In this document: positions 21,723 through 39,798 of the stretch, in pieces
Position numbering within the stretch: the stretch's first letter is position 1
Layout: every line of letters begins with the position of its first letter
Assembly (NCBI GenBank): GCA_964626665.1
Contig: CAZVGK010000003.1
Span: 85,277 to 149,276, forward strand
Source of the DNA: an uncultured Gemmatimonadota bacterium
GTDB lineage: Bacteria > SM23-81 > DAOVCL01
Direction: 5' to 3'
Length of the DNA stretch: 64,000 nucleotides
Program-made: the position numbers and the translations under genes
Notes under the pieces: model-generated
What the model was told of the DNA's origin: nothing
Seen by the model: only the letters and a program-made list of their open reading frames with translations
Database searches by the model: none

Positions 21723-22964
21723 TTAAAGTCCCAATTTGTCCTCAACATCCTCTATGGAGGGTTCCACCAAAACCGCATCCCTTTCCAATTGGAAATCCAC
21801 GGCCTTGATATCTTTTAATCCGCTTCCCGTGACGAGGATGACCACCCTTTCGTCGGGGTTAACCCATTTTTCGCCAATTGCCTCTATCAGGCCAGCCAAA
21901 GCGGTGGCGCCAGCCGGCTCAGCGAATATGCCTGTTGCTTTGGCCAAAAGCCCCATTGCCGCCCTGATCTGTTCGTCGGAAACGGATATAAACCTTCCTC
22001 CCGTATCCCTTACTGCCCTTAACGCTTTCACCTGATCCCGCGGATTTCCCACCGATATACTGTCCGCTATCGTATGGGGGATTAGGGGCTCCACCCGCTC
22101 CTTATTCCCCTGAAAGGCCCGCACAAACGGCGCGCTCCCCTCTGCCTGCACCCCTATAAGGGAGGGTAGTTTGGCGATAAAGCCCAACCTATGCAGATCT
22201 GAAAAACCTTTCCATACCCCACTAATGATACATCCATCTCCCACAGGGACAAAGACCTTGTCTGGTGGTTTCCAATTTAACTGCTCCGCTATCTCCAGGG
22301 CAACCGTTTTCTTCCCCTCAACTAAGTAGGGATTGTAGGCTGTATTCCGGCTATACCATCCCCATCTCTCGGATGCCCTTAAACAAAGCTCAAATGCCTG
22401 ATCATAGGTCCCCTTAACCAAGATAACATTTGCCCCAAAAACAACAAGTTGAACAAGCTTTGCCTGGGGCACCTTGGCTGGAACAAATATGTATGACCTA
22501 ATGCCGGCACAGGCGGCAAATGCCGCCATAGAAGAGCCGGCATTGCCACTGGAGGCAGCAGTTACAACCTGAGCACCATTTTCCAATGCCTTCACTATTG
22601 CGATTGAAGATGCCCTGTCCTTCAGCGAACCGGTGGGATTTCTGGTATCGTTCTTTATCCACAATTGCCTGAGCCCCAGCCTGGCCTCTAATTGGGGGAA
22701 TTTGGTGAGAGGTGTCCAACCACTATGCAGGGGCTGGATATAGTCCCCTCCCTCCACAGGCAATAGGGGAAGGTAACGCCAGAGGGAAAAGTCCCTATTC
22801 ACAGCTAAATTTTCCTTGGTGAGCTTCTCCCTGATCACCTCATAATCATAGACAACATCCAGGGTTCCCAAGAGGTCCCCACATTGGGGGCAGGTGTATT
22901 GAACCTCCCCCGGCAGATACTCCCGGCCACAGCTAACACATCTTAGTAGCTTAATCTCTCCCAT
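21723..22964 (-). CDS. thrC: Threonine synthase-like PLP enzyme with N-terminal zinc ribbon
   Basis: N-terminal CVSCGREY...CPQCG ribbon followed by a fold-type II PLP domain (SLKDRAS... GNAG). Confidence 0.65.
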   Translation of the reverse strand: MGEIKLLRCVSCGREYLPGEVQYTCPQCGDLLGTLDVVYDYEVIREKLTKENLAVNRDFSLWRYLPLLPVEGGDYIQPLHSGWTPLTKFPQLEARLGLRQLWIKNDTRNPTGSLKDRASSIAIVKALENGAQVVTAASSGNAGSSMAAFAACAGIRSYIFVPAKVPQAKLVQLVVFGANVILVKGTYDQAFELCLRASERWGWYSRNTAYNPYLVEGKKTVALEIAEQLNWKPPDKVFVPVGDGCIISGVWKGFSDLHRLGFIAKLPSLIGVQAEGSAPFVRAFQGNKERVEPLIPHTIADSISVGNPRDQVKALRAVRDTGGRFISVSDEQIRAAMGLLAKATGIFAEPAGATALAGLIEAIGEKWVNPDERVVILVTGSGLKDIKAVDFQLERDAVLVEPSIEDVEDKLGL

Positions 22965-24274
22965 AATTTGCTGCTCAGTTCCCTCGCTCTTTGAGTGATT
23001 TCCTCCTCATCTATCCCCACCAACTTTTTATCCCTCATCAGAATTTTCCCGTTGGAGATCGTGGTATCGACCACGGAGTTGGCCAAACCAAAGACCAAAT
23101 GACCGAGGAGATTTTGCTCCTTTAGCTGGGTAGGGGGAAGATAATCCACTAAAATTAAATCTGCTAAGTAACCCTTGGCGATCTTCCCCACTTTAAACCC
23201 AGTAACCTTTTCCGCTATTTTCGGGTTGTTTTCCAAAAGCATCTTTGCTGCCTCGGCAAATCCGACTCTGGGATCGCCAGCGGTGTGGCGATGAAGCAAG
23301 TAGGCAGCTCTCATCTGAGCCAGCATATCCGAGGACATCCCATCTGTCCCCAACCCCACTGTAATTCCCTTTCCCATCATTCCCCGGACATCGGCACTAC
23401 CCACGGCATTGTTCATATTCGATTCCGGATTATTTACCACATTTGTCCTGGTTTCCCTCAATATGTCCTGCTCTTTATCATCAATATTGACGCAATGGAC
23501 GGCAATAGATTTTGGCCCCAAGGCCCCATGTTTTGCCAATCTCTCCCCCACCCTCACCCCATATTTTCTCTGGCTATCCTCCTCATCTATCCTATCCTCA
23601 GCTATATGAAGGTGGATCCCACAATCATATTTTTGGGCGAGATCCACTGACCTGTCCAGGGTCTCATCCTCCACTGTAAAGGAGGCGTGCAACCCCACCA
23701 TCCCGGTTACTAAACCTTCTTGATCTCCCAATTTTTTGAGGAATCTCTCATTTTCCGCAACCCCTTCATCGCCTTTTCCATACCTATCTGAGGCTCCCAG
23801 GCAAAGGCAGGCCCTCACCCCAATCTCCTCGACGGCCCTTTGAATCTCATCTAAGCTGCCGAGCTGATATGACTGGGATTCGTGGTGATCAAAGATGGTG
23901 GTTGTCCCCTTTTTGACCCCCTCAATTAAAGGAATTAAAGAGCTGTAATAGATGTCCTCAGGGGTCAATGCCCTATCTAACTTCCACCAGATCTTCTCCA
24001 GTATCTCTCTGAAGTTCTTTGCTGGCTCCTTCGGCGGCTTCATCCCCCGCGCAAAGGTGGAATATAGATGGTGGTGAGCACAGATCAGGCCGGGCATAAT
24101 AACCTTGCCGGAGGCATCGATCTCCTCTGCGTTGGTTGGTTTTCCAACCTTGTCAGTCGGGCCGAAGTCCTTAATCCTATTCCCCTCGATTAAGACCGCA
24201 CCGTTCTCGATTACCCTGTTCTCTTTCCCTAAGGTTATGAGAATTCCATTTTTAATGAAGATTGCCATTTTCAA
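22943..24274 (-). CDS. ssnA: SsnA-family putative aminohydrolase (amidohydrolase superfamily)
   Basis: Close motif-by-motif match to E. coli SsnA: GKVIMPGLICAHHHLYSTFARGM; WWKLDRAL...IYYS; HHESQ; NNPESNMNNAVG; LGTDGMSSDM. Confidence 0.75.
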   Translation of the reverse strand: MKMAIFIKNGILITLGKENRVIENGAVLIEGNRIKDFGPTDKVGKPTNAEEIDASGKVIMPGLICAHHHLYSTFARGMKPPKEPAKNFREILEKIWWKLDRALTPEDIYYSSLIPLIEGVKKGTTTIFDHHESQSYQLGSLDEIQRAVEEIGVRACLCLGASDRYGKGDEGVAENERFLKKLGDQEGLVTGMVGLHASFTVEDETLDRSVDLAQKYDCGIHLHIAEDRIDEEDSQRKYGVRVGERLAKHGALGPKSIAVHCVNIDDKEQDILRETRTNVVNNPESNMNNAVGSADVRGMMGKGITVGLGTDGMSSDMLAQMRAAYLLHRHTAGDPRVGFAEAAKMLLENNPKIAEKVTGFKVGKIAKGYLADLILVDYLPPTQLKEQNLLGHLVFGLANSVVDTTISNGKILMRDKKLVGIDEEEITQRARELSSKLWERLSY

Positions 24275-24393
24275 CCTTTTTTCGACAGGATAACAGGATT
24301 TATGGGATTAGATCAGGTGACAGTAGTCAGGGACAAGAGGTTTGAAACCGACCCCCGACCTCTGTAAACTGTCAGCCCTATTCACTTATCCCG

Positions 24394-25623
24394 TCAATCC
24401 TGTAAATCCCGTCTAAAATTGTTCTTTTCCTTTATCGTAACCGCATCCACCGGACAGACACTTGCACACAACCCACATCCCACGCATTTCTCCTCATCAA
24501 CCTGAGGAAGCCTATCCTGTCCCTCCAACTTCATCGCCTGATGTCCCCCATCGCGGCAGGCAATATAGCAGACATCACACCTGACGCATAACTCTTCATC
24601 AATCTGAGAAACAACGGATTTTCTTTCCAGTTCCCCTTGAGTAACGATATGGGGGAGGCTTTTCCCGATAATTTCTCTGACCTCGTTGCATCCCCTATCT
24701 TCCAGATAAAAGGCTAAGCCATCGATCAAATCCTCAATTATATCATAGCCATAGTGCATAACGGCAGTGGCAAACTGAATAGTCCTTGCTCCGACGAGGA
24801 GAAATTCAACTGCGTCCTTCCAGGTGGTGGGCCCTCCCGTTCCGGTGATGGGAATATCCACATTCTTGGCGATTTCGGCAATCGTCCTCAGGGTAATCGG
24901 TTTTATTGCTGGCCCACTCATTCCACTATAAGAGGATTTCCCCCTTACATTTGGGTAGGGGGTGAATGAATGGAGATCAATTCCCATCAGTGAGGGGATT
25001 GTATTTGAAGCACAAATGGCATCCCCTCCCCCTCTCTTTACCGCCTTAGCCACATCGACAATGTTTGTGACCTGCGGGGTGATCTTGATGACCACAGGGA
25101 CCCTCTCTGCTGCCTCCTTTACCCATCCAGCGACCTTTTCGGTAGCTGGAATCGATTGGGCAAGCATAGCCCCGGGTTCCTCTCCCATACTCCCTTGTGG
25201 ACAGGAAAACGAGCATTCTATCAGGTCAACCCCAGCACTTTCTAATCTCTTCACTAAACCCTGCCAATCCTCTTTCTCTGACCCCATAATCGATGCCCCC
25301 ACAACCTTATGGGGGAATTCCCTTTTCAAAATTTCTACCCCTTTTTCTATCTCATCGATATGATGCTCGGAGATTAAGTCAATGTTTCCTAAGCCGACTA
25401 CCCTCTTCCCCTCAAAGTTTAGGGATGAGATCATTGGATAGACCAGATCAACTGATGTCCCCTCCACAGATGTGGTCTTTAGGATTGCCCCTGCCCAACC
25501 GGCCTCGAACCCCTGTCTAACCATATCCAGATCATCAGTGGGGGGAGCCGCAGCTAAGATGAAAGGGTTCTCGAATTTCACCCCACAGAAATCCACCCCC
25601 AGTTCAATACCGTGATACTTCAT
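24394..25623 (-). CDS. preA: Dihydropyrimidine dehydrogenase PreA-like subunit (DHOD-family TIM barrel plus C-terminal 2x[4Fe-4S])
   Basis: FMN-binding DHO_dh fold with two C-terminal CxxCxxCxxxCP ferredoxin motifs. Confidence 0.7.
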   Translation of the reverse strand: MKYHGIELGVDFCGVKFENPFILAAAPPTDDLDMVRQGFEAGWAGAILKTTSVEGTSVDLVYPMISSLNFEGKRVVGLGNIDLISEHHIDEIEKGVEILKREFPHKVVGASIMGSEKEDWQGLVKRLESAGVDLIECSFSCPQGSMGEEPGAMLAQSIPATEKVAGWVKEAAERVPVVIKITPQVTNIVDVAKAVKRGGGDAICASNTIPSLMGIDLHSFTPYPNVRGKSSYSGMSGPAIKPITLRTIAEIAKNVDIPITGTGGPTTWKDAVEFLLVGARTIQFATAVMHYGYDIIEDLIDGLAFYLEDRGCNEVREIIGKSLPHIVTQGELERKSVVSQIDEELCVRCDVCYIACRDGGHQAMKLEGQDRLPQVDEEKCVGCGLCASVCPVDAVTIKEKNNFRRDLQD

Positions 25624-25647
25624 TTCCCCCCTTTTTCCCTAAATAAA

Positions 25648-25865
25648 CCACAGATTTCATGGAATCTCTGGAACACGAATGAGACGAATAAACGAATCTA
25701 CACGAATAGATAGATTTACCACGGAAATTCACGGAATTACACGGGAAAAAGGCAATTAAAAATTGAGAATTAAGAATGAAATTTATGCTGGCTATCCCTG
25801 ATCCCCGGAAACTGACTCTTGATCCCTGTTTTTCTGTGCATAGTCCGTGGTTATCCGTGGTGAAG
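25648..25865. repeat. cacgg-rich composite interspersed repeat (~220 nt), copy a
   Basis: The module ccacggaaattcacgg...gcaattaaaaattgagaattaagaatga..ttatgctg..cctgatccccggaaactga..gtccgtggttatccgtggtgaa recurs at 34600-34812, 39577-39798, 43013-43233 and inverted at 60580-61038. It includes ATTCGTGT-type direct repeats with ~9-10 nt periodicity. Confidence 0.7.
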
Positions 25866-26127
25866 TCCTTGTGCAGGGCTCCGCCCTGACAGGGAACCTT
25901 TTTCTCTGACAGGATGACAGGATAAAAAGCAGTTGTCAGTGATCAGGGCCAGGAACTGATCCCCGTCCGCTGAAACCAGTCTCCTCTCCCTTGACGGGGA
26001 AGGGCTAAGGAGAGGGTGAAATAGTTTTCCCCCCTCACCCTAACCCTCTCCCCCCAGAGGAGAGGGAACCGTAAAAGGCAGGAGTCAGTTGTCAGTAGTC
26101 AGTTATCGGGAACAACTCCCAAACCCA

Positions 26128-26196
26128 TGTGCTGTCAGGGCTCTGCCCTGACAGGGAGATCCCTTTGTGGATGATAACATCCACAAAGAGCGCTGG
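26128..26196. repeat. Double-hairpin repeat (gtcagggctctgccctgac plus ctttgtggatgataacatccacaaag)
   Basis: Near-identical copies at 26128-26196, 26418-26487 and 32697-32764; partial at 25878-25900 and 56355-56385. Confidence 0.7.
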
Positions 26197-26572
26197 GATT
26201 CTGTCTAAGTCTTCTCTGACAGGATAACAGGATAAACGGGATTAAGTGAACCTCCCTGCTCCAGGCTGGGCATCCCAAAACAGTCTCCTCCCCCTTTACG
26301 GGGGAGGACTAAGGAGAGGGTGTAAAAAGTAATCCGTTACCTCCCTCACCCTAATCTTCTCCGCTCAATTTCAGTAATATTTATCCAGTCAATCATGTAA
26401 ATCCTGTCTAAATTCCTGTGCTGTCAGGGCTCTGCCCTGACAGGGGGAGTCCTTTTGTGGATGATAACATCCACAAAGAGCACTGGGTTCTTCGTAAAGA
26501 AAACCTTCTTTTCTTGGCTTCATAACACAGATTTTGATAATCCGTGAAATCAGTGGAATCCGTGGCTCCATC

Positions 26573-29500
26573 CTATTTTATCACCACTAGCTTTTTGACG
26601 GCAGTGAAATTACCTGCCTCGAGTCGATATAGATAAACCCCGCTGGCCAATCCTCTGGCATCCCAACGGACTGACCTGTATCCGACCCCCTGATACTCAT
26701 CTACCAATGTCGCCACCTTCTGCCCCAGCAGGTTGTAAATCTCCAGCCTAACCTGAGCATCCCTGGGCAGAGCATACTTGATCTCCGTAGTGGGATTGAA
26801 GGGGTTGGGGTAGTTTTGGGAAAGGGCAAAAGCTTGTGGAATACCAAATACTCCCCTCTCCCTTACCCCCTCTTTCCCTACCACAAACCACCAGGGGGAA
26901 ACATCGCTGTTTGATCCCCAGGTAGTCAGGCTATCCGTGTCCATAGCTACCACCTTCCAATAGTATCTGGTGTTGTCATCTAAGGGAATGCCCGGTGGAA
27001 TTGTAAAGTGAGTATCGGCAGGAGAAATAACCCTTACTCCCTGGGAGAAGGTGCTATCCGGGCTAAGGTAAATCGTATAGGTGACATAGTCCCATAGGTC
27101 ATTATCCGTGGCCTTATGCCAGAGGAAGGTGGGAGTTGTGGAGACGGAATCTATGCCCAGTTCTGGCTCTATGAGGGAAAAGGGATTGGGAGGCTCCAAG
27201 GCTACATTGGTGAAGAATTTCCAGGTATCCGTAGATGTGGTTAAGCTCTCCTTATCTACGGCTACTACCTTCCAGAAGTATTGAGAGTTGTCGGATAACT
27301 CCTCTGTAGGGATATAGCAGTTGCTGTTCACAACCGTGGGGGTAGCCCCGCTGAAGTTGCTGTCCTGGCCAACCCAGAGGAGATAGTGAATAGAGTCGGC
27401 AATATCGTTGTCTGTGGCATTCTCCCAGTAGAAGATAGGGGTGAGGTCAACCTCCACGCTGTTCTGGGTAGGGGTGACCAGGTTGAAGCTGTTGGGGTCT
27501 TCGTTGGCCGTATTAGTGATAAAGGCCTGATAGCCCTCTTCATCCTCCACCGTAGCACCAGCTAAGTCCTGAGCCACTACCTTCCAGTAGTAGAGCTGAT
27601 TGTCCTCCAAGGGGGTCTTGATCTGATAGACGCTCTCTCCTCCCACCTCAACTTGCACCTGAGAGGGGACGTCCTTTCCATAGAAGAGGGTATAGGTAAC
27701 CACATCTCCAGGATCGGGGTCTATGGAGGTCTCCCAATCCAGTATGGGCTTTAGGGTGGTCACCTCACCTCCATCGGCGGGGGTTAGAAGATGGAAGCTA
27801 CCTGGCGGATTGTTTTCAGAGTTGATAATAAAGGAGCTTGAGGCCATCCATTCCCCATTTTCAAAACCATCATAAGCACTTGCCCTCCACCAGTATTGGT
27901 GATTATCCTCCAAAGGGACATCAATCAGCCAAATTGTGGAATCTATCCCCTCTTCTACTCCAGTGGCCGATGTGACCAGGTTGCTCAATAGGCTATCGCT
28001 GTAAACCTCAAAGCCATAGATAAGACTATCGCCTTCGGCATCTGTGCAATTGGAAATGATCAAAGTCACTATGCTATCGCTGATTACCTCTCCTTCTTTA
28101 GGGCTTAAACCCAGGGGGATGGTGGGAAGACTATTCATCCTGAAGGAAAGGCTGGCCCAACTTGCCCATAAATCATCAGTATTCTTCACCCTGGCTCTCA
28201 AATAGTAGGTTTCCACATCAATCAAGGAATCCCCAGCATAGGTTACAAAGGTGTCCGCACTGCTCACCTCTCCGCTATCCCACATCTCGGCCACCGACCA
28301 GTCATCATCAGTTCCCACCTGAACCTGAAAGCCATCTTGAGGCAAGCTTTGCAGATCAGAATATGACCAGGTGATAAGTGGCTGATGACTAACCAGATGC
28401 TCTATATCTTCCGATCCCCCAATATCCAGATTGGAAATGAAGGGATGCGGATTTTCCCCTACGAGAACGGTAGTAAACTTGGTAGAATCCACATCGGAAG
28501 TAATGGTAATCGTCTCCCCAACCGTAGCCCCAATAGATACCCCTTCCACACTCACGGTATCTATCAAAGCAGTTCCTCTGAATATGCCAGAGACTGAATC
28601 AGTTTCCGTAAGAGCAACACTAATATATTGGGTAGTGAAGTTACTGGTTATAGCAACTGTAGTCTGATCGACGCAGATGGAATCGCTGTCTTGACCTTCA
28701 AGCTGGATATACATCGTCGCCCCAATCCACAAATTGGTGGTTAAGTTGCTGGTATAGGTTTCATCCGACTTCAACACAACCGAATACACTGAGTCCGGCT
28801 CACCAAGAGCTGGAGAGGTAAGAATGGGGCTATACAGGACTTTCCCCAAGGTTATGTCATCGTAATAATCCCAAATCCTGGCGTCGATCGAATCCGTATT
28901 AGTTGTCCCCCACCAATTGTTGCTGGCATCAATATCAGTATCTTGATCGTATCCAAGCTTTACCTCATATTTGCCATTAGTGATCAAATTGTTCTGGTTT
29001 ATATGAGCGTCTGAATTTTGGTCACAGTAAATTCCCCCCCACTCAGGAGAGGCAAAATTCCCAGCTATGAGGTTATTACTAAGGGTCAGAGAGCACCACT
29101 TACAAGAAATTGCAACCCCTAAGTTCGCAGTTATAGTATTGTTCGTAATAGACAAAGTTGAGTGGGAGCAACCGAGGGCAACCCCTGAATTTCCAGTTAT
29201 GATATTCTCGAGAATAGCTAAAGGGGCATATGAACATTGAATGCCGCCACCACGATTTTTGCTTATAGTGTTGCCTGTAATAGGTGATGCTCCATGATAG
29301 TAATAGACACCACCACCAGAGTAAGCAGAGTTCCCGGTTATTATGTTGCCCGTGATAGACGGGGAGGAATACTCACAATACACGCCACCACCTTTACCAT
29401 CACTTGAGGCAAAGTTTCCCGTTATTGTATTGTCAACGATATTGGGGGACGATTCGAAATAGCAAGAGATGCCACCACCATTGCCATGATAGGAAGTTTC

Positions 29501-30232
29501 AGTTATCGTATTTCTATCTATGATGTTCTCAGTGATAATTGGTGACGAATGGTCTTCGCATTCAATACCAGCCCCACCCATTTTGGCGAGATTTCCTTCT
29601 ATAGTGTTACTGGAGATAATCGGAGAAGAATACTGATAACAGCGGATACCACCGCCATAAGCGTAAGTGAGGTTCAAATTATTGTGCTGAATGTAATTTC
29701 CTATAATAATGGGGGACGAATTGTGACAGTTAACGGCGGGGCCAGAACTTTCGGTTATACTACTATGGATTATAAGCGGAGAGGTGTAATCGCAATAGAC
29801 AGCTCCATCGCCGCCGCCATATTCAATTCTGGAGTATTCAATAATACATCCACTTACATAGTTGCCCAGTGAATCCAAAACGGCATCAACGCTGGTATCA
29901 ACAAACTTCATACTTCCCCAATCCCCTGGCGCTGGTGTGGCATTGTTAGAAGTAAACAGAATGCTATCCGTTACTGTCCCCCTGGCTATCAATTCACCGC
30001 CAATGTTTAGAGATAGGCTATCGTTGAATTTCACCGTTACCCCAGGCTCAATGGTTAGGGTTGCTCTTTCAGCCACCTCCACTGTTCCCACCACAATATA
30101 TGGACTACCAGCCACCGTCCAGATTGTATTAGAGTTGATACCACCGCTAACCTCCGTATCGGCAATGGCCAATTGGACTCCAAAGCTGAGCAAAAACACC
30201 ATTGCCACCAAACTTACTTCAATCTTTCTCAT
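26573..30232 (-). CDS. Giant T9SS cargo protein: signal peptide, parallel beta-helix (PbH1) repeats, several FN3-like domains, C-terminal sorting domain
   Basis: MRKIEVSLVAMVFLLSFGVQLAIA signal; ..ITGN.. beta-helix repeats; recurring YYWKVVA.D FN3 motifs. The C-terminus NYPNPFNPTTEIKYALP...VRWDARGLASGVYLYRL is a T9SS CTD. Confidence 0.8.
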   Translation of the reverse strand: MRKIEVSLVAMVFLLSFGVQLAIADTEVSGGINSNTIWTVAGSPYIVVGTVEVAERATLTIEPGVTVKFNDSLSLNIGGELIARGTVTDSILFTSNNATPAPGDWGSMKFVDTSVDAVLDSLGNYVSGCIIEYSRIEYGGGDGAVYCDYTSPLIIHSSITESSGPAVNCHNSSPIIIGNYIQHNNLNLTYAYGGGIRCYQYSSPIISSNTIEGNLAKMGGAGIECEDHSSPIITENIIDRNTITETSYHGNGGGISCYFESSPNIVDNTITGNFASSDGKGGGVYCEYSSPSITGNIITGNSAYSGGGVYYYHGASPITGNTISKNRGGGIQCSYAPLAILENIITGNSGVALGCSHSTLSITNNTITANLGVAISCKWCSLTLSNNLIAGNFASPEWGGIYCDQNSDAHINQNNLITNGKYEVKLGYDQDTDIDASNNWWGTTNTDSIDARIWDYYDDITLGKVLYSPILTSPALGEPDSVYSVVLKSDETYTSNLTTNLWIGATMYIQLEGQDSDSICVDQTTVAITSNFTTQYISVALTETDSVSGIFRGTALIDTVSVEGVSIGATVGETITITSDVDSTKFTTVLVGENPHPFISNLDIGGSEDIEHLVSHQPLITWSYSDLQSLPQDGFQVQVGTDDDWSVAEMWDSGEVSSADTFVTYAGDSLIDVETYYLRARVKNTDDLWASWASLSFRMNSLPTIPLGLSPKEGEVISDSIVTLIISNCTDAEGDSLIYGFEVYSDSLLSNLVTSATGVEEGIDSTIWLIDVPLEDNHQYWWRASAYDGFENGEWMASSSFIINSENNPPGSFHLLTPADGGEVTTLKPILDWETSIDPDPGDVVTYTLFYGKDVPSQVQVEVGGESVYQIKTPLEDNQLYYWKVVAQDLAGATVEDEEGYQAFITNTANEDPNSFNLVTPTQNSVEVDLTPIFYWENATDNDIADSIHYLLWVGQDSNFSGATPTVVNSNCYIPTEELSDNSQYFWKVVAVDKESLTTSTDTWKFFTNVALEPPNPFSLIEPELGIDSVSTTPTFLWHKATDNDLWDYVTYTIYLSPDSTFSQGVRVISPADTHFTIPPGIPLDDNTRYYWKVVAMDTDSLTTWGSNSDVSPWWFVVGKEGVRERGVFGIPQAFALSQNYPNPFNPTTEIKYALPRDAQVRLEIYNLLGQKVATLVDEYQGVGYRSVRWDARGLASGVYLYRLEAGNFTAVKKLVVIK

Positions 30233-30332
30233 CTTACTCCTCTCCTTTCTTGGTTTTTCAGGGATTCTGCATTTTATTTGTCTTCTACTTGCTCCTATAT
30301 TTCTAACTTTTAACAGCAAGCCGATGTGGTTT

Positions 30333-31157
30333 TCATATAACGAAAAAACTCGCCTGTGTTGCGATATCTTTGATTAATGTCTTGGCTTTCACTCTACGAT
30401 GGGTAACAATAAATTCAAACATTTCAAAAAGGTCCTCTGTTATCTGTATAAGTCTTTCATTCGATGCGTAATTATGAGGTTGTCCATGTTTAAAAAGGTA
30501 TGTTCGCCCTCGGCAGGTCACTTTAAGATCCGATTCGTCTCTGGCAAAGTATACTCCATTATTATGTATGCAATTTCTAATAGCTGATAACATTTTAAGA
30601 GCTTCCCGAAAAATATGAGGATCAGGTAAGCTTAAATGCTGAAAAAGACTTAGCCAGACTCTGCTGAACTCCTTATTCGCTTTATTACCAGGATCAATTG
30701 CTCTTAATATCGAACGCATTGCAGACTCTACTACGCTGGAAAGCGAGAAGATAAATCCGCTCCGTATATACACTTCGAATTGTTTCCCTACTATACAAGC
30801 GTCTGATTTAGAAGCGGGAGACATAATTTTTTGTACCCAATTTATGTCTAATGCATAATGAGCAGCATAATACAGTGCAAGATCACACGATCTTATGAGA
30901 TTACAGAGCGCCCAAAATAAACGAATCCGGATATCCTGATTAGCATCCCAGGAATAGTTTTGTAGAAGTCTCTTGCTTTGATTTTCGATGGTGACCCGTA
31001 AAGCCTCAAAATCTTTCATGCATTTAAGAAGGTTTGTCGGCGTTGGCATGATCACAACGGTATTTCGGCTCCCTAATCCAGATATTGACGGGAAATTTGA
31101 GGAGGAACTTCTATTTTCATCTCCCTCTGTACCGGTTTTGAAATTGTCATTTCTCAT
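30333..31157 (-). CDS. Uncharacterised protein, translationally coupled partner of the NERD-like nuclease
   Basis: 274 aa with no confident domain. Low GC. A 1-nt gap to the upstream gene implies coupling. Has an AIRNCIHNNG (R-x3-H) motif, which is not the canonical HEPN Rx4-6H. Confidence 0.5.
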   Translation of the reverse strand: MRNDNFKTGTEGDENRSSSSNFPSISGLGSRNTVVIMPTPTNLLKCMKDFEALRVTIENQSKRLLQNYSWDANQDIRIRLFWALCNLIRSCDLALYYAAHYALDINWVQKIMSPASKSDACIVGKQFEVYIRSGFIFSLSSVVESAMRSILRAIDPGNKANKEFSRVWLSLFQHLSLPDPHIFREALKMLSAIRNCIHNNGVYFARDESDLKVTCRGRTYLFKHGQPHNYASNERLIQITEDLFEMFEFIVTHRRVKAKTLIKDIATQASFFVI

Positions 31158-31158
31158 T

Positions 31159-31980
31159 TTACTTTTCCACTCCCAAAATTATTGGGTTAGAATAGTCTAT
31201 TTCAATAGCTAAGCTTCGTAAGTATTCAATTAGCATACCTCGCTTACCTTCAGATCTTAGCCTGTCTTTAAAACTTTGATCGCTATGTCCTAAGATGATT
31301 TCTAAATAATCAATTAGAGTGGCATAGAAAACCAAAAAAGCAATATCATATTGTGATCTGTCCGCTTTCTTGAGAGAATAATATATATGCTCTGGAGACT
31401 TTCGTAGTAGTCTACTGCTTGAACCACTTTCAATTCCGAAGATAATGCTAAATTGCTTATTTCCGATACAATGGATGCCATCTAAGGCATATCCATTCTT
31501 TTCTGGTGGACATTGACGGATATACTTTTGCACAGTTTTTTCCAAAACTGAGCCGAAACAAAATAAATCACATTTACAAAGATTAGCTGGAGGAGAACTC
31601 GATGTATTGCCCACCATTTCTTTTATAGTTTTCATGCTATCGAGTGTCGAAAAAAATTCCTTTTTATTGAGCTTAGTTTTGACTTCAATTGCATATATTG
31701 CTGATTCTGGCCTAACAACAACAATGTCACCAAATTGAAACAGAGGAGCATAGCGAGATGCCTCATGAATGAGAATATCTATTTGAGGACTGACTGTATT
31801 TTTGTCAACATAAACAAACCCAGACGATACTGCGAAATGAGTAGGAACATAGTCTCTTAGAAAGTTACTAAGAAGCCTTTCTGCCCAAAGTCCTTTCGTG
31901 CCAGGATGTGTGATGAAGCTTTTAATCTGGTTTAACTGACTATTGAAGCTTTTGTCTACTTCTGCAAAATAGTCTTTCAT
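31159..31980 (-). CDS. NERD/Mrr-like PD-(D/E)xK nuclease-fold protein
   Basis: GTKGLWAERLLSNFLRDYVP...VSPQIDILIHE...AIYAIEVKTKL follows the NERD pattern (G..GE....L...y.v...eIDhvvi...gifviEvK), i.e. a D...E.K catalytic-core arrangement. Low GC. Confidence 0.5.
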   Translation of the reverse strand: MKDYFAEVDKSFNSQLNQIKSFITHPGTKGLWAERLLSNFLRDYVPTHFAVSSGFVYVDKNTVSPQIDILIHEASRYAPLFQFGDIVVVRPESAIYAIEVKTKLNKKEFFSTLDSMKTIKEMVGNTSSSPPANLCKCDLFCFGSVLEKTVQKYIRQCPPEKNGYALDGIHCIGNKQFSIIFGIESGSSSRLLRKSPEHIYYSLKKADRSQYDIAFLVFYATLIDYLEIILGHSDQSFKDRLRSEGKRGMLIEYLRSLAIEIDYSNPIILGVEK

Positions 31981-32307
31981 CTCTTACTTGTGTTAATGTT
32001 TGATGCCATAGCGCTGGTAGACAGATAGTGCTATTGCTTGAGAACTTACCAGATAACAAAATATACTGTAAGACCCGCTCCAATTACACACTACTTCTCT
32101 TCTCGGTATGGCTTTTGAGCGGGCGATATGGGGTCATATCTTTATTCTTGACTTTCCAAATTCTAATTACCAACTTAATTCCCTTTGTCAGTTGCCGGGT
32201 AATGCCTTTTAAACAGGGCTTTAGCCCTGTCCCTGCAATTCATTGACTATGTGAAGAGATCTCCTGACCTCGACTTCCATCGGCATCGGAAGATGCCTCC
32301 TACACTC

Positions 32308-32449
32308 TTCTACCCGGCTTTAGCCGGGGTTGAGAGGGCTTTAGCCCGTTTGGAGTGCTGTGATTCCTGTCACAGCTTCCGTCAGCAGGAGTTGACGCAC
32401 TCCATAGAGGGCCTAAAGACCCTTAACCCGCACTGAAGTGCGGTAGAAG
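32308..32449. mobile_element. REPIN/MITE-like element, copy 1
   Basis: Terminal hairpin modules ttctacc-CGGCtttaGCCGG and CGCACTgaAGTGCG-gtagaa (CTAC/GTAG-flanked). Core three-way junction ggagtgc[ctgtga..tcacag][gtcagc..gttgac]gcactcc. Other copies at 34859-34954 (truncated), 49567-49693 (inverted), 59487-59662, 62455-62580 (inverted) and a fragment at 60743-60800. Confidence 0.65.
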
Positions 32450-32903
32450 TCTTCTACTCAAGGAAACCTGAAAAGGTTTGAAAAAAAAGACCTTGCAAAA
32501 TTGTAGGCCAGAGATCAGTTTACAGGGATCGAAGGTCAGGAGAAATCCGTTACACCTATCAACCGACACCTGACGAATGACTGACTACTGATCCCTGACC
32601 CCTGTGAACCGTTAGCTTAATTCAAAAATACCATGAAAAAAGGCCCTGTCAAGGGGAAACTTCCCCCCTGCTACAGGGTCTTTCTGTGTTGTCAGGGCTT
32701 TGCCCTGACAGAGGAAGTCTTCTCGTGGATGATAACATCCACAAAGAGCACTGGGGTTGTTTTTCGACAGGATAACAGGATTTACAGGATTTTAGTTTTA
32801 TCCCGATCATTCTGTCAATCCCGTCTAATAAAAGGGAATTCTCCCTGCTTCTCAGTGCCGTCATGGCAGGACTCCTGAGGGATGGAAAATAGAAATTCCT
32901 GAG

Positions 32904-32927
32904 CCGTCAGATGCCCTCATCTGACGG
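32904..32927. repeat. Palindromic hairpin family cggtcagatgccctcatctgacgg
   Basis: Copies at 32904-32927, 54109-54133, 59749-59768 (truncated) and variant 59785-59809. The 54040-54135 and 59695-59770 copies share a longer ~90-nt context. Confidence 0.7.
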
Positions 32928-33123
32928 GGTTTTAGTAGCAGGAGAGGGATTTTGCCACCCCATGTTAGCGGCACATTTGAATTGGGGGACCTGTCTGCGT
33001 GCCTGCCTGAGCGAGAACGCTCGCAGTCAGGCCTGCCTGTACCAGTCTGCCTGTGCGTCGCACGCAGACAGGCACGGCAGACAGACACCGCACAAGCAGG
33101 GAGGTCTCCAGACCTTTCAAGAG

Positions 33124-33147
33124 CTGTCAGGAGGTAACTCCTGACAG
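33124..33147. repeat. Palindromic hairpin family gtcaggaggtaactcctgac
   Basis: Copies at 18610-18637 (imperfect), 18685-18708, 33124-33147 and 41463-41486. Confidence 0.7.
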
Positions 33148-33185
33148 CACGCTTTTAGTGCCCTTCCCTGACGGCGAGAGGGGAG

Positions 33186-33210
33186 GGTGGCAGAATCGGG
33201 GTTCTGCCAC
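33186..33210. repeat. Palindromic hairpin family ggtggcagaatcggggttctgccacc
   Basis: Copies at 33186-33210, 34815-34840, 54175-54204; variants ccgtcagaaccccgattctgacgg at 56203-56230 and 62785-62808. Confidence 0.7.
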
Positions 33211-33270
33211 ATCGGGCTTAATTTATCCTGTCAATCCAGTAAATCCTGTCCGAAAAGCAGTTGTCAGTAG

Positions 33271-34584
33271 TCAGTTATCGGGAACGACTCCCGACCCCTG
33301 CAAATAGGTAGCTATTGCCTGGGCGGCCTTTTTGCCTTCGGCCACCGATTGGACAACGGTTCTCCCCTTTTTTGACACGATTATATCCCCCCCAGCAAAG
33401 ACTCCTTCCCTTGAGGTCATCATATCCTCATTTACCACCAAGTATCCTTTAGCTGTCTTTAATCCCTTAAACAGCGGACTCTCCTCCGGTGCCTGACCCA
33501 CTGCTTCAATTATTGTATCTCCGATTAAAGTTAAACTGCTCCCCTTGATTTTAACTGCATTCTCCGGAACAAACCTTCCCGGAATTCTCCAATCGATTTT
33601 AATTGCCTCCAGCCCTTTAACCCTTCCATTATTGCCCATAATTCTTAAGGGCATAAACCTGGGATGGATATTTACTCCCTCATTCTCCGCCTGGCTTATC
33701 TCCTCCCTGAAGGCCGGCAGTTCATCTGGCCCTTCCAGACAGACCAGGTCCACATGTTTGACCCCTACCCTTAATGCGGAGCAGGCACAATCAATTGCCA
33801 CACTCCCGCCACCGATCACAATTGCCCTTTCACCCACCCTTACCCTCTGAGGATCCTCATTGACCTCTCTCAGGAATTCTATTGCAGACAGAACCCACTT
33901 TAGCTCCTCACCTGGAATCCGACAGAACAACGGTTTCCCCAATCCCACGCCAATAAATATGGCCTTAAACCCCGAACTGAATAGATTATCCAGGCTACCA
34001 ATCGCTCTATTTCCTTTAACTTTCAGTCCCAATTTTTTGACATAGTCGATTTCTTGCTTGACCATCCTCTTAGAGAGTCGATAGGAGGGGATTCCATAGG
34101 TGAGAACTCCACCTAACTTGTCCCTTTTCTCAAAGATCGTCACCTCAAATCCTTGAACTGCCAGTTCGGCGGCACAGGAGAGACCGGCCGGTCCCGCACC
34201 GATTACGGCCACGTTCACCCTGTTTTTCTTGATCTGAGGAAACGATTTAAACTTCGCTGTATATTCCCTCTCTGCCGCGAATCTTTGCAAGTCCCCAATC
34301 CTAATTGGGGTAGAAAGCTTCGTGGATGAGCATTCCTTCTCGCACAAAGCCTCTACAGGGCAGACAGTTCCGCAGACCCCGGCCAAGATGTTCTTCTCCT
34401 TGATCAGGTTTATGGCTCGCCGGTAATTTTCAAATCTGATTGCCCTGATGAACTTCTTTACATCAATACCTGCTGGACAACCTCGGTTACAAGGGGCATC
34501 CTCGCATAGTAAACACCGAGATGCCTCCAGCACGGCCTGAGCCTCGGTCATCGGCTCTTTCGTTTCCTTAAAGCTTAACTTCAT
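33271..34584 (-). CDS. preT: GltD-like NAD(P)H-dependent oxidoreductase (dihydropyrimidine dehydrogenase PreT-like subunit)
   Basis: N-terminal 2x Cys clusters (CLLCEDAPCNRGCP; CGTVCPVEALCEKEC); FAD/NAD Rossmann motifs VAVIGAGPAGL and IVIGGGSVAIDCA. Confidence 0.7.
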   Translation of the reverse strand: MKLSFKETKEPMTEAQAVLEASRCLLCEDAPCNRGCPAGIDVKKFIRAIRFENYRRAINLIKEKNILAGVCGTVCPVEALCEKECSSTKLSTPIRIGDLQRFAAEREYTAKFKSFPQIKKNRVNVAVIGAGPAGLSCAAELAVQGFEVTIFEKRDKLGGVLTYGIPSYRLSKRMVKQEIDYVKKLGLKVKGNRAIGSLDNLFSSGFKAIFIGVGLGKPLFCRIPGEELKWVLSAIEFLREVNEDPQRVRVGERAIVIGGGSVAIDCACSALRVGVKHVDLVCLEGPDELPAFREEISQAENEGVNIHPRFMPLRIMGNNGRVKGLEAIKIDWRIPGRFVPENAVKIKGSSLTLIGDTIIEAVGQAPEESPLFKGLKTAKGYLVVNEDMMTSREGVFAGGDIIVSKKGRTVVQSVAEGKKAAQAIATYLQGSGVVPDN

Positions 34585-35077
34585 AATTATCTCAAATTAC
34601 CACGGAATTTCACGGAGAAAAGCAATTATGAATTGAGAATGAAGAATGAAGAATGAAGCTTATGCTGTTATTCCTGATCCCCGTAGTTTGATCCCTAACC
34701 TCTGTTTTTTCGTGGTAATCCGTGGTGATCAGTGGTAAAATATCAGCTACAGATTACACGGAAAAATGCAATTAAGAATTGAGAATTAAGAATGAGGCTT
34801 ATGCTGATCAGCGAGGTGGCAGAATCCCGATTCTGCCACCCTCCCATTGTTTTCTGATTTTCTACCCGGTTTTAGCCGGGGGTTCTTAGGGCTTAAGCCC
34901 TTTCAACGCACTTGGATAGAAAGGCCCCAACCCTGCACTAAAGTGCGGTAGAAACCTTCCACCCAGCTTTAGCTGAGCTATCAAATCCTCGATCTGACAG
35001 CAGATATCCTGATCCCTGTAAACTGTTACCTCTATTTTGACATTCATCCTGTCAATCCAGTTAATCCTGTCTAATAA

Positions 35078-36805
35078 TTATTCTTTCTCAAAAAGTGGGA
35101 CGAGCTGGAACTTTACCACATCTATTATCCCCTTGTCGCTTACTCTAATCTCCGGAATTACGGGCAAAGCAAGGAAGGAGAGGACCATAAATGGCTCCTT
35201 TACCGTAGCACCCAATCCCTGGCAGGCCAAATTCAAGGCCTGTATTTTGGCTTCAACTTCCTCCAGTTTCTTCCCCGTCATCAAACCGGCAATGGGAAGG
35301 GGCAATTCTTCAATGACCTGGCCACCTTCCACCACAACCAATCCACCCTGTAGTTTTACGATCTTTACCGCCGCGGTATACATATCATCATCATTGGTCC
35401 CCACAACAACTATATTGTGTGAGTCATGAGCGATTGATGAGGCAATGGCCCCCCTCTTTAATCCTATCCCCTGGACAAACCCCAAACCAGTGTGGCCAGA
35501 GGCCAAATGCCTCTCAATGACAGCCACTTTCAAGATGTCCCTCCCTGGATCAGAAAGGGCCTCTCCACCCTCTATTTTCACCTCCTCTATGCGTTTTCTC
35601 GTAATTAGCTGATCAGGGACGATTTGAATCACCTTAGCGCGTTGTCCCTTGGCCACAACCTTGAAATGTTCCTTCTCTATCCAGGCCGTATTCACCGTGC
35701 TCCTCAAGGGGACAAAGACCGGCTTGATCATTCCGGGCAACATTTGGCCATCAGAGGCCACAAGTTGACCATCTTTGTAAACGGAGATTATATTGAAATC
35801 CCGAAAGTTGTCAAAGACAACCAGATCTGCCTTATATCCAGGGGCAATAGCACCTAAGTCTTTGAGTTTAAAGTATTCTGCACCATTTAGGGTGGCCATC
35901 TGGATGGCGGTTAGCGGATCTGTCCCCGATTCGATGGCTGTTTTGACCATATAATTGATGTGCCCCTCTCGAAGGAGATCATAGGGATGCCGATCATCGG
36001 TGACAAAGAAACACTTACGCGATGTATTCCTTCCTTTGGACTTCACCAAAGGGAGAAGGGTCTTTAGGTTCTTGGCCGTGGTTCCTTCCCTAATCATCAC
36101 ATACATCCCATCCCTCAGCTTTTCCCTGGCCTCCTCTAAGGTAGTTGACTCATGGTCGGATTTAATCCCGGCGGCGATGTAGGCATTTAGCTCCTTACCC
36201 GTCAACCGGGGGGCATGACCGTCGATAAGCTTATCCCCGGCAGCCTTAATCTTCTCCAAAACCTCCGCTGTTCTATGGATAACCCCAGGGTAATTCATCA
36301 TCTCGCCCAGCCCCAGGATCCGCTTATTGTCGAGAAGAAGCTTAAGGTCAAAGGCAGAGAGCCTGGCCCCAGAGGTTTCCATCTCGGTAGCAGGCACACA
36401 GGAGGAGAGCATAAGGAAGACATTAAGGGGAAGGTTGCTGCTTGTCTCCAGCATATACTTTATCCCTTCCAAACCAAGGACATTGGCAATCTCATGGGGA
36501 TCAATGATTACGGTAGTTGTACCCAAAGGGACAACAGCCCGGGCATACTCCGGGGGGGGGACCATCGCGCTTTCTATATGCACATGGCCATCGAGCAGGC
36601 CGGGGGCAAGGTATTTCCCTCGCAGATCGACCACCCTTTTTGCCTTGTAGTTGCCAATTCCAGCAATCCTCCCTTTGTAGAGGGCTACATTACCCTCATA
36701 GATCTCCTCGGCAAATACATTGACAACCTTCGCATTTTTTAACAAGAGGTCACAGGGCCTCTCCCCCCCTGCAGCCTCGATCATCTCCTCAAGCTTAGGA
36801 TTCAT
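35078..36805 (-). CDS. ade: Adenine deaminase
   Basis: Amidohydrolase fold with LLDGHVHIES metal-binding motif and the adenine deaminase C-terminal domain. The likely start MNPKLEEMIEAAGG overlaps the upstream stop (ATGA). Confidence 0.75.
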   Translation of the reverse strand: MNPKLEEMIEAAGGERPCDLLLKNAKVVNVFAEEIYEGNVALYKGRIAGIGNYKAKRVVDLRGKYLAPGLLDGHVHIESAMVPPPEYARAVVPLGTTTVIIDPHEIANVLGLEGIKYMLETSSNLPLNVFLMLSSCVPATEMETSGARLSAFDLKLLLDNKRILGLGEMMNYPGVIHRTAEVLEKIKAAGDKLIDGHAPRLTGKELNAYIAAGIKSDHESTTLEEAREKLRDGMYVMIREGTTAKNLKTLLPLVKSKGRNTSRKCFFVTDDRHPYDLLREGHINYMVKTAIESGTDPLTAIQMATLNGAEYFKLKDLGAIAPGYKADLVVFDNFRDFNIISVYKDGQLVASDGQMLPGMIKPVFVPLRSTVNTAWIEKEHFKVVAKGQRAKVIQIVPDQLITRKRIEEVKIEGGEALSDPGRDILKVAVIERHLASGHTGLGFVQGIGLKRGAIASSIAHDSHNIVVVGTNDDDMYTAAVKIVKLQGGLVVVEGGQVIEELPLPIAGLMTGKKLEEVEAKIQALNLACQGLGATVKEPFMVLSFLALPVIPEIRVSDKGIIDVVKFQLVPLFEKE

Positions 36806-39576: not shown

Positions 39577-39798
39577 CACGGATTGCACGGATTCACCGAA
39601 TCTTTGGAACACGAATAAACAAATCTACACGAATAAATGATCTACCACGGAAATTCACGGAAAAAAGCAATTATGAATTGAGAATTAAAAATTAAAAATA
39701 AGTATGCTGACTATTCCTGAGCCCCGGAAACTGACTCCCGATCTCTGAAAAACTGATCCCTGTTTTTCCCTGCATAGTCCGTGGTTATCCGTGGTGAA
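39577..39798. repeat. cacgg-rich composite repeat, copy c, lying between the M and S subunit genes
   Basis: Same family as 25648-25865. Its terminal segment encodes the last residues (IIHHG-stop) of the FAD subunit gene. Confidence 0.65.

Follow-up and report, generated by a model that had tools for sequence, protein, structure and literature searches.

How did the genes for the two subunits of a PreT/PreA-type reductase come to lie 7,647 bp apart on one strand? In the Escherichia coli operon, preT is followed by preA. The 64-kb stretch of DNA analyzed here (the window), from an uncultured WOR-3-like lineage, has a preT-like gene at 33271..34584 and a preA gene at 24394..25623, both on the minus strand and in the order of the E. 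coli PreT/PreA operon, but separated by positions 25624-33270 rather than adjacent. The interval contains a T9SS beta-helix gene, a low-GC two-gene island and two repeat-filled intergenic regions of 949 and 1,290 bp, the two largest in the window. A preliminary description of this DNA had listed the same components, all of which we found as described, the pair lying on one strand in canonical order, and had read them as an insertion into an operon bounded by repeat arrays.

Both genes are intact. The PreT-like subunit (437 residues; Fe-S and FAD/NAD(P)H) has the Pfam domains Fer4_20 and Pyr_redox_2, and PreA (409 residues; FMN and two [4Fe-4S] clusters) has DHO_dh and Fer4_21. PreA scored 453 bits against the NCBIfam PreA model NF006183, above its equivalog cutoff of 335. 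No PreT-specific model was present among the best 25 NCBIfam matches of the PreT-like protein, which were GltD- or Nfn-like and all below cutoff, and the YgfK model TIGR03315 gave 244 bits for a cutoff of 835. In the PDB, the PreT-like protein matched the NfnB-type chain 4ylf_B and residues 67-509 of pig dihydropyrimidine dehydrogenase (DPD), and PreA aligned with residues 531-847 of the pig enzyme and its Fe-S tail. Thus, the pair jointly rebuilds the architecture of mammalian DPD in two subunits, split as in E. coli PreT/PreA (YeiT/YeiA), an NAD-dependent dihydropyrimidine dehydrogenase.

The comparison with related genomes proposed in the preliminary description showed that at 82 of the 93 informative PreA loci, from many phyla and including Planctomycetota, Caldisericota, Nitrospirales, Anaerolineales and others, PreT lies upstream on the same strand at a distance of no more than 300 bp. 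At locus P0008, whose PreA is 76% identical to that of the window, 3 bp separate the two genes. In the closest outgroup, L010 (WOR-3 UBA3073), preT and preA flank a 474-bp spacer, and all four shared genes gave the tree topology (window, L005), L010. Close relatives are a handful, mostly on short contigs, and only the window, L005 and L010 show the end of the gap next to preT. These comparisons show that preT-preA adjacency is the ancestral state. Since preT lies directly 5′ of preA at those 82 loci, the 7,647-bp separation in the window is secondary, and there is good support for an insertion between two genes that were contiguous in the ancestor.

The other half of the earlier reading, a single 7.6-kb event, did not hold, as the interval comprises at least three to four layers of different age. 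The locus as a whole is most probably explained by an abutting preT-preA pair, inside a purine cluster of approximately 25 kb, whose junction was first broken open and later filled layer by layer while both genes were maintained. The order of the layers and their base-level junctions, both described below, were established by sequence comparison. The junction would represent a clear yet ordinary case of an operon junction turned into a dumping ground for accessory DNA.

The oldest layer appears to be a small gene of the GxxExxY (PDDEXK_3) type. Such genes, like the four-helix-bundle (TIGR02436) genes, are known from rRNA intervening sequences. L080 has an intact GxxExxY gene between the T9SS gene and preA, L082 also has an intact copy, and the 474-bp spacer of L010 contains an N-truncated PDDEXK_3 open reading frame 82.6% identical to the L080 gene. 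In the window, a remnant on the minus strand (26488..26570) directly follows the T9SS stop codon. It consists of the conserved 5′ flank and approximately the first 13 codons, with the ATG at 26525-26523, and was recovered by tblastn with the intact L080 gene (70% over 30 residues). The alignment with L080 and L082 is collinear up to position 26488, where a double-hairpin module begins. A selfish PD-(D/E)xK gene probably lodged between preT and preA in a WOR-3 ancestor. As with the genes of rRNA intervening sequences, a small stand-alone gene forms a discrete unit between conserved genes, its copies in relatives here being intact, truncated or nearly erased; unlike them, it lies between two protein-coding operon genes and not inside an rRNA gene. 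Another intact GxxExxY copy and a TIGR02436 gene are found elsewhere in the same cluster.

The body of the GxxExxY gene was lost where the left repeat array (25624..26572) now stands. In this array, a composite unit of approximately 300 nt recurs two to three times in degenerate form, at spacings of 290-311 nt, alongside a MITE-like cassette. The right array (31981..33270), the longest intergenic region of the window, consists of hairpin and MITE-like modules in a mosaic, and we detected no gene remnants in it. Sequence repeated in other intergenic regions covers at least 55% of the left array and at least 30% of the right one. The preliminary description regarded the arrays as bounds of the insert. 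However, 17 of the 30 intergenic regions of the window share their modules, which are thus not specific to the preT-preA gap, and the arrays are better described as secondary fill with modules found in intergenic regions genome-wide. Dinucleotide shuffles yielded no module matches, and the hairpin modules fold with z scores of -5 to -7. One structured multi-hairpin element of approximately 150 nt (32296..32445; z = -5.6) has other copies at 49594-49693 and 62481-62580. The double-hairpin module (CTGTCAGGGC..GCCCTGACAG plus GTGGATG..CATCCAC) is, within the window, confined to the two arrays, with 89% identity between the copies at 32681..32755 (z = -5.0) and 26413..26487 (z = -6.8). The edge of the latter is the GxxExxY breakpoint.

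Repeat sequence also reaches into preT. A module of the GTCAGTAGTCAGTTATCGGGAAC type (33258..33298), of which a second copy with 93% identity lies at 26086-26126, overlaps the 3′ end of the gene and encodes an aberrant C terminus, QGSGVVPDN*. The PreT C terminus is KNSNA in L005 and KNSSKFK in L010, and their divergence from the window begins exactly at this module. The composite module just 3′ of the preT stop codon is orthologous to L005 3348-3432. In the last step of the proposed history, hairpin (REP-like) and MITE-like modules would have overwritten the GxxExxY body and approximately the last nine codons of preT, making the two arrays.

The MITE-like cassette, of approximately 150 nt, has terminal inverted CCACGGA repeats. 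nhmmer identified four full copies, each of them on the minus strand and just upstream of a gene: one at 25714..25870, some 90 nt ahead of the start of preA; one at 34595..34745, whose end is 10 nt short of the start of preT; and those at 39640-39804 and 43110-43249, upstream of 2Fe-2S xdh genes. The same search found no cassette in L005 and just weak partial matches, elsewhere, in L010. REP/BIME elements with their RAYT transposases, and MITEs such as Correia, ERIC, BOX and RUP, are the known bacterial elements of these kinds. Like REP/BIME elements, the short, imperfectly palindromic modules are present in many intergenic copies and joined into mosaic clusters, and like MITEs, the cassette is non-coding, bounded by terminal inverted repeats and present in several copies. 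The relative L005 has, as in RAYT systems, a gene for a Y1 (IS200-like) transposase between hairpins; the hairpin there is different from the modules of the window. Unlike REP/RAYT systems and MITEs, the modules have no cognate transposase in the window, neither Y1 nor any other; alignment revealed no target-site duplications in the flanks of the four CCACGGA copies, and the module sequences matched no Rfam family.

It is possible, though we regard it with some doubt, that the modules actively drive cassette turnover at the junction, by homology or as substrates of a REP-associated Y1 transposase, through insertion, deletion and exchange between strains. Copies of the same composite module come after preT, after the T9SS gene and before preA in L005, where each cassette is thereby bracketed; the L005 gap also holds the Y1_Tnp gene with its own flanking hairpins, the same hairpin being found in L081. 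The coincidence of the GxxExxY breakpoint with a module edge fits such a role. Furthermore, block 26218-26412 of the left array is 96.9% identical over 195 nt to L081 5471-5665, which, with the low dS of the 3′ half of the T9SS gene, suggests recent exchange. However, modules that occur everywhere in the genome are expected at any junction, and their passive build-up in long non-coding gaps may suffice. The lack of a Y1 transposase in the window and of visible target-site duplications also argues against an active role, and the modules, only 82-93% identical over 40-75 nt, are poor substrates for homologous recombination.

The next layer in age would be the T9SS gene. It encodes a predicted surface protein of 1219 residues with beta-helix and Ig-like repeats (Beta_helix, NosD, Ig_Rha78A_N and Por_Secre_tail domains) on the minus strand, at 26573..30232; the open reading frame spans 26573-30319, with the ATG at 30232 as the likely start. 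The C-terminal Por_Secre_tail is that of type A cargo of the T9SS (TIGR04183, 45.1 bits for a cutoff of 23; PF18962, 38 for 27). The window, L005, L080, L081 and L082 all have a T9SS gene directly upstream of preA, and its 3′ junction is identical among the window, L080 and L082. It is common to five relatives, whose PreA proteins are 86-90% identical to that of the window, which makes the interruption old, and ancestral for the subclade. An interrupted arrangement inherited among relatives would have undermined the idea of an insertion; it is found at this level, but more widely contiguity is ancestral. As judged by parsimony with the outgroups only, the gene was probably gained in the subclade and not lost in L010. 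In the ancestor of the window, L005 and L080-L082, it probably inserted, co-oriented, into the space that runs from the stop codon of preT to the GxxExxY 5′ flank.

The T9SS gene has diverged in a mosaic pattern: in codons 1-500 dS is saturated, in codons 501-1200 it is 0.37-0.64, and in the flanking genes it is 1.2-2.4. The beta-helix regions are only approximately 70% identical in nucleotide sequence among strains whose preA genes are 92-93% identical. The gap has probably become permissive, with the beta-helix part swapped or diversified between strains. It is very unlikely that the protein was recruited into the purine-catabolic unit, for instance as a surface enzyme or binding protein feeding the pathway, instead of being neutral cargo. 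Its orientation and place were kept in five lineages through dS values above 1, and its GC content is fully ameliorated, as recruitment would predict. Against this, the beta-helix domain is hypervariable among close strains and, in L081 and L082, broken into fragments or frameshifted, a pattern typical of surface antigens and adhesins. In addition, T9SS beta-helix proteins form a huge family that occurs in unrelated contexts, and outgroups have the same cluster without the gene.

The two-gene island (30333-31980) has a GC content of 0.372, compared with 0.469 for the window. Its first gene (31159..31980, minus strand) encodes a DUF6602 protein of 273 residues (Pfam, 4.8e-24) whose N-terminal 122 residues resemble a PD-(D/E)xK or NucC-type nuclease (PADLOC PD_DExK, 3.7e-29; NucC effector, 1.5e-18). 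The partner gene (30333..31157, minus strand; 274 residues) belongs to no known family, with no match in Pfam, NCBIfam, PADLOC or PHROGs. We detected just three homologs, of which a distant one adjoins genes for a tyrosine integrase and an excisionase. The island is common only to the window and L158, in which the same gene pair is followed by the start of the T9SS gene (88% nucleotide identity). In L005, the gap cargo comprises the Y1 transposase and an MNT/HepT toxin-antitoxin pair, and in L081, a transposase fragment and three genes without known family. Because each relative has different cargo, the preT-preA site is an insertion hotspot, in agreement with the preliminary description. Small mobile or defence-like cassettes specific to single lineages, such as the DUF6602 nuclease-like gene and its partner in the window, would come and go in this permissive gap.

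We considered it highly improbable that the 7.6 kb entered recently as a single mobile element, a transposon or genomic islet with the arrays as its ends or recombination sites. Such an element could account for the co-orientation of the inserted genes, for the low GC content of the island and for the modules that the arrays share in direct orientation (75 nt with 89% identity and 41 nt with 93% identity), which within the window occur only there. However, the components differ in age and distribution, with the T9SS gene shared by five relatives and the island by L158 only; the T9SS gene has the average GC content of the window, 10 points above that of the island; a GxxExxY gene stood earlier where the left array is now; and most intergenic regions hold similar modules. 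Nor did Pfam searches of the gap genes and a tRNA scan reveal any integrase, transposase or tRNA in or beside the gap, which, having no Rfam match either, resembles neither an integrase-borne island nor an integron array. Together, these findings largely refute a single insertion.

The chance that the junction is an artifact of metagenome misassembly at repeats is practically negligible: although the contigs of L003 and L077-L079 end right upstream of preA and repeats thus do break assemblies, the same layout recurs in independent samples (L001, L002 and L158), among them a JGI contig of 98.5 kb and a record of 174.7 kb, the junction of the island with the T9SS gene is covered independently by L158, and the relatives L005, L080, L081 and L082 independently have the T9SS gene upstream of preA, which argues against a chimera.

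In the layered history that we favor, both genes outlived the opening of their junction. Relative to L005, dN and dS are 0.131 and 1.24 for preT (ratio of about 0.10) and 0.075 and 1.25 for preA (about 0.06), ratios that are rough because dS of the flanking genes is near saturation. Purifying selection has continued to act on both genes since their separation, and the reductase formed from the split PreT/PreA pair probably still works. If so, either transcription must reach preA by read-through over 7.6 kb of genes in the same orientation, or the left array must supply a new start site. Simple scans found no sigma70-like promoter on the gene strand of the left array and a terminator-like hairpin after the T9SS gene (26308-26286); a sigma70-like match lies upstream of preT (34613-34586). 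Alignment identified a preA-proximal leader (..AATCTGTGG..TTTAGGGAAAAAGGGGGGAAATG; 25624..25673, minus strand) that is conserved and orthologous in L080, L082 and L010.

The name dihydropyrimidine dehydrogenase used in the preliminary description is appropriate at the family level, but the gene context suggests a purine ring as the substrate. In place of pyrimidine genes, the neighbors here, on the minus strand over approximately 25 kb, are two XdhA-like gene sets and genes for XdhC, MocA, adenine deaminase and SsnA. PreA, with its DPD-type architecture, adjoins the SsnA-type aminohydrolase gene immediately downstream (22943..24274, minus strand; NF005540, 542 bits for a cutoff of 444; TIGR03314, 507 for 455.5), which is downstream of preA in many relatives, too. 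The Mo-enzyme large subunits scored 699.8 and 541 bits on the XdhA model NF043082, below its cutoff of 780. In the reductive uric acid pathway, SsnA acts with a DPD/PydA-like reductase, YgfK or UacX, and co-localization of such a reductase, SsnA and XDH-family Mo enzymes is a marker of uricolytic clusters (bioRxiv 10.1101/2025.05.19.654654). The arrangement in the window resembles the YgfK/UacX and SsnA step of the 2,8-dioxopurine pathway (10.1101/2025.05.19.654654, 10.1101/2025.04.24.650524) and points to anaerobic purine rather than pyrimidine catabolism. From gene neighborhood alone, the physiological substrate would be a purine-ring intermediate (isoxanthine-like) and not uracil. In contrast to the fused YgfK and the FAD-less UacX, the reductase here is a split PreT and PreA pair, and unlike in those pathway clusters, the score of the neighboring PLP enzyme is threonine-synthase-like (NF006050, 338 bits for a cutoff of 303).

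Every gene from ~21.7 to 47 kb of the window lies on the minus strand. Read in the direction of transcription, the cluster comprises two sets of XDH-family genes accompanied by accessory genes for XdhC and MocA (36.8-46.5 kb), an adenine deaminase gene (35078-36898) and the PreT-like gene, preT (33271-34584), whose product has a Fer4_20 + Pyr_redox_2 architecture. A repeat-filled intergenic region of 1,290 bp (31981-33270, the right array) separates preT from a gene for a DUF6602 protein (31159-31980), which is followed by genes for a 274-aa protein of unassigned family (30333-31157) and for a T9SS-sorted beta-helix/Ig-repeat protein (26573-30232). A second repeat-filled region of 949 bp (25624-26572, the left array) precedes preA (24394-25623), and genes for an SsnA-type aminohydrolase (22943-24274) and a threonine-synthase-like PLP enzyme (21723-22964) complete the series. 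With 453 bits, PreA exceeds the cutoff of the NCBIfam PreA equivalog (335). In solved structures of pig dihydropyrimidine dehydrogenase (DPD), PreT covers residues 67 to 509 and PreA residues 531 to 847 plus the Fe-S tail, and the two proteins jointly rebuild the DPD architecture. The DUF6602 gene and its partner form an island with a GC content of 0.372; that of the T9SS gene (0.469) equals that of the window (0.469). Gene, domain and GC data all agree with the layout of preT, preA and the intervening elements reported in the preliminary description.

GTDB species genomes and JGI metagenomes supplied PreA loci, on which homologs of nine window proteins were placed by tblastn. With a threshold of at least 40% PreA identity, 112 distinct loci were retained, 93 of which had sufficient upstream sequence to be judged. 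PreT was found on the same strand no more than 300 bp upstream of PreA in 82 of these 93 loci, mostly with an estimated gap of ~0 or an overlap. The adjacent loci span Planctomycetota/Phycisphaerae, Caldisericota, Nitrospirales, Anaerolineales and others, and homologs of XDH and SsnA are frequently found near them. On a JGI contig whose PreA is 76% identical to that of the window, 3 bp separate preT from preA, and an amidohydrolase gene comes next. The non-adjacent loci are those of the outgroup, the WOR-3 metagenome-assembled genome UBA3073 (L010, with L083 representing the same locus), one locus with a 687-bp gap, a few PreA genes without a nearby PreT, and the window's own clade. This distribution shows that preT-preA contiguity is the ancestral state and upholds the earlier proposal of an insertion into an operon. 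The interruption itself is ancestral within a small subclade, and adjacency prevails elsewhere. PreA homologs lacking PreT up to 10 kb upstream occur in L006 to L008 (72% identical to the window's PreA), L059, L128 and L129, so that PreA can occur unlinked from PreT in other lineages; in L006, the PreA gene adjoins a mannosyl-3-phosphoglycerate synthase gene.

Misassembly does not account for the split arrangement. At least 10 contigs from several samples, with lengths of up to 174.7 kb, encode the identical PreA protein, and a 98.5-kb JGI contig has the identical gene arrangement. A separate Logan contig (L158) covers the island and the start of the T9SS gene with 88% nucleotide identity. The contigs of several close relatives (L003, L077, L078 and L079) end 0 to 143 bp upstream of preA, consistent with repeat-induced assembly breaks at the same junction.

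The preliminary description had proposed one insertion of ~7.6 kb. Comparison with the relatives instead revealed several layers, of which the T9SS gene is not the oldest. All four shared genes gave the topology (window, L005), L010, L005 being a close relative. In L010, preT and preA are separated by a 474-bp spacer that contains an N-terminally truncated GxxExxY/PDDEXK_3 ORF. In three further relatives, L080, L081 and L082, whose PreA proteins are 90% identical to that of the window, a beta-helix T9SS gene is located immediately 5′ of preA, the two being separated in L080 and L082 by an intact 144-aa PDDEXK_3 gene. The L010 remnant shares 82.6% identity with this intact gene, and the GxxExxY gene therefore already separated preT from preA when the T9SS gene came. 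Moreover, the flank GGAGCCAC(A/G)GATT... follows the T9SS stop codon in the window, L080 and L082 (alignment A2) and the preT stop codon in L010, indicating that the T9SS gene and anything upstream of it inserted once, between the preT stop codon and the 5′ flank of the nuclease gene. In the window, the GGAGCCAC flank persists along with 13 initial codons of the nuclease gene (ATG at 26525). Homology to this gene breaks off at 26488, where it meets a 75-nt double-hairpin module (26413-26487), and the ~50 nt directly 5′ of preA are orthologous with those of L080, L082 and L010 (alignment A3). This breakpoint at a module edge, together with the conserved leader, indicates that the left array represents a small gene overwritten by repeat modules. 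The split is thus old and layered.

The cargo between preT and preA has turned over among relatives, with every inserted gene co-oriented with preT and preA in all of them. From preT to preA, the window carries the DUF6602 gene and its partner, the T9SS gene and the GxxExxY remnant. The L005 gap (PreA 86% identical) contains a Y1_Tnp gene with its own flanking hairpins, a 120-aa ORF, a T9SS gene and an MNT/HepT-like toxin-antitoxin pair. On three contigs without the preT side, we found a transposase C-terminal fragment, the L005 hairpin, three unassigned genes and a beta-helix gene whose sorting domain is degenerate (L081), or a T9SS gene and the intact GxxExxY gene (L080 and L082). The L010 gap holds the N-truncated GxxExxY remnant alone. 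An integron-like cassette array was ruled out by the absence of an integrase and the genome-wide distribution of the modules, and a tRNA-linked island was excluded because a tRNA scan found none. No Y1 transposase was detected in the window by tblastn, and tblastx searches of the right array for coding remnants returned repeat modules only. The N terminus of the DUF6602 protein matches PD-(D/E)xK/NucC-type nuclease models. Its partner matched nothing in four HMM libraries and has three homologs only, the distant one being encoded next to genes for a tyrosine integrase and an excisionase.

Small selfish-type genes are also scattered across the purine cluster. Between the gene for the second XDH large subunit and MocA is an apparently intact GxxExxY/PDDEXK_3 paralog (45546-45926, minus strand) that shares 53% identity with the L080 gene, and a four-helix-bundle TIGR02436 gene is found nearby (47322-47804, minus strand). 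A second variable site of the cluster is present in L010 (1961-8062), where the adenine deaminase gene is missing between XDH and preT and ~6 kb of NUDIX, methyltransferase, PNP and GNAT genes are found instead.

The T9SS gene is a mosaic. Nei-Gojobori estimates between the window and L005 gave dS values of 2.4 for Ade, 1.24 for PreT, 1.25 for PreA, 1.56 for SsnA and 1.83 for the PALP enzyme. In the T9SS gene (26573-30232, compared with L005 4842-8222), the first ~500 codons, which encode the beta-helix half, are hyperdivergent (dS from 1.2 to a saturated >2.4 for codons 1 to 500, with dN of 0.2-0.35). In the Ig-repeat/CTD half, dS falls to 0.37-0.64 (codons 501 to 1200), 2.5 to 4 times below the flanking core genes, although these ratios are approximate only, as flanking-gene dS is near saturation. 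Similarly, the nucleotide identity among L080, L081 and L082 is 92-93% in preA versus ~70% in the beta-helix parts. A 195-nt intergenic block (window 26218-26412, L081 5471-5665) is 96.9% identical between two strains whose adjacent PreA proteins are only ~90% identical, which suggests that this composite module has recently been exchanged or mobilized. Taken together, these sequence patterns indicate that, following lineage divergence, the locus underwent allelic replacement or recombination. Homology searches with the T9SS protein yielded a huge, diverse family, and only one homolog, P0126, provided context: its contig also encodes a PreA with 90% identity to that of the window.

The repeat arrays, which had been considered boundaries of the insertion, are better described as secondary infill. 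They consist of discrete modules, several with stable hairpins (z = -5 to -7). Of the 30 window intergenic regions of at least 60 bp, 17 contain similar modules, which are also present in L005. The modules are thus a genome-wide feature, not markers of insertion. Within the window, two modules, the double hairpin and the GTCAGTAGTCAG type, are confined to the two arrays. In the left array, a ~300-nt composite unit recurs in two to three degenerate copies at spacings of 290-311 nt; Tandem Repeats Finder reported only AATCCGTGG in three copies and a 13-mer, missing the ~300-nt periodicity because the units are too diverged. One module extends into the 3′ end of preT, with the C-terminal sequence QGSGVVPDN replacing the conserved KNSNA of L005 or KNSSKFK of L010. 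Another module, TTAGACAGGATTTACnGGATTGACAGGATAA, is located at or after the stop codons of several genes (24384-24416, 33221-33253 and 35042-35074 in the window, 3348-3377 in L005), and one copy spans the preA stop codon such that the last ~7 preA codons lie within it. A multi-hairpin element of 100-150 nt (z = -5.6) is present in three copies, at 32296-32445, 49594-49693 and 62481-62580, the first inverted relative to the others; Rfam gave no match at gathering thresholds in the whole window, this element included.

As the preliminary description had noted, a cassette lies directly upstream of preA. This element of ~150 nt has terminal inverted CCACGGA repeats, and its four full copies (25714-25870, 34595-34745, 39640-39804 and 43110-43249), all in gene orientation, are immediately 5′ of preA, preT and the 2Fe-2S xdh ORFs starting at 39565 and 43026, respectively. 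Partial copies are found at 34753-34853, 50010-50049 and 60778-60842. The cassette is absent from L005, and L010 has weak partial matches only, away from these genes. The absence of copies upstream of preA and preT in both relatives rules out a conserved regulatory element and argues for a lineage-specific, recent, mobile-like one. Its flanks showed no evident target-site duplications. The cassette may serve as a mobile promoter or operator, or be no more than a MITE. We consider it unlikely that it carries a promoter or operator whose spread across the purine cluster restored preA expression after the split and joined the scattered units into one regulon; if true, this would represent operon repair and rewiring by a mobile element. 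Transcription of preA possibly proceeds by read-through across the co-oriented insert or from a new promoter in the left array. Consensus promoter scans, which are not decisive, found no gene-strand promoter in that array, and the terminator scan was uninformative (10 terminator-like sites observed versus 10.1 expected).

Both reductase genes are full length, and their dN/dS ratios relative to L005 (~0.10 for PreT and ~0.06 for PreA) point to purifying selection since before the L005 split. The enzyme is thus very likely still in use, and a two-subunit redox enzyme can keep purifying selection long after separation of its genes. The neighborhood, with two XDH-family enzymes, adenine deaminase and an SsnA above its equivalog cutoff, matches the marker pattern of the reductive uric-acid/2,8-dioxopurine pathway. 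In this newly described anaerobic pathway (bioRxiv 10.1101/2025.05.19.654654), a DPD/PydA-like reductase, YgfK or UacX, must couple with SsnA (bioRxiv 10.1101/2025.05.19.654654; 10.1101/2025.04.24.650524). From this gene context, we regard it as about evenly balanced whether the PreT/PreA pair reduces a purine-ring intermediate and not uracil. PreT/PreA in an XDH-SsnA cluster would represent a candidate third form of the reductase, after YgfK and UacX, found in environmental phyla (WOR-3, Planctomycetota and Caldisericota), and this is the point most worth testing. Along with this candidate purine-reductase role, the cassette 5′ of four purine genes is the lead most worth following. The locus also provides a well-resolved natural case of an operon junction decaying into a variable islet, with layers that can be ordered and two junctions exact to the base. 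Both the erosion of an operon at a permissive junction and repeats of the REP/MITE type are known phenomena, and current understanding is not overturned. In several phyla, the gene for the threonine-synthase-like PLP enzyme is kept directly downstream of SsnA or PreA (homologs in L037, L040, L102, L105 and L127), and by analogy with the PLP lyase YgeX this enzyme may have a role in the pathway.
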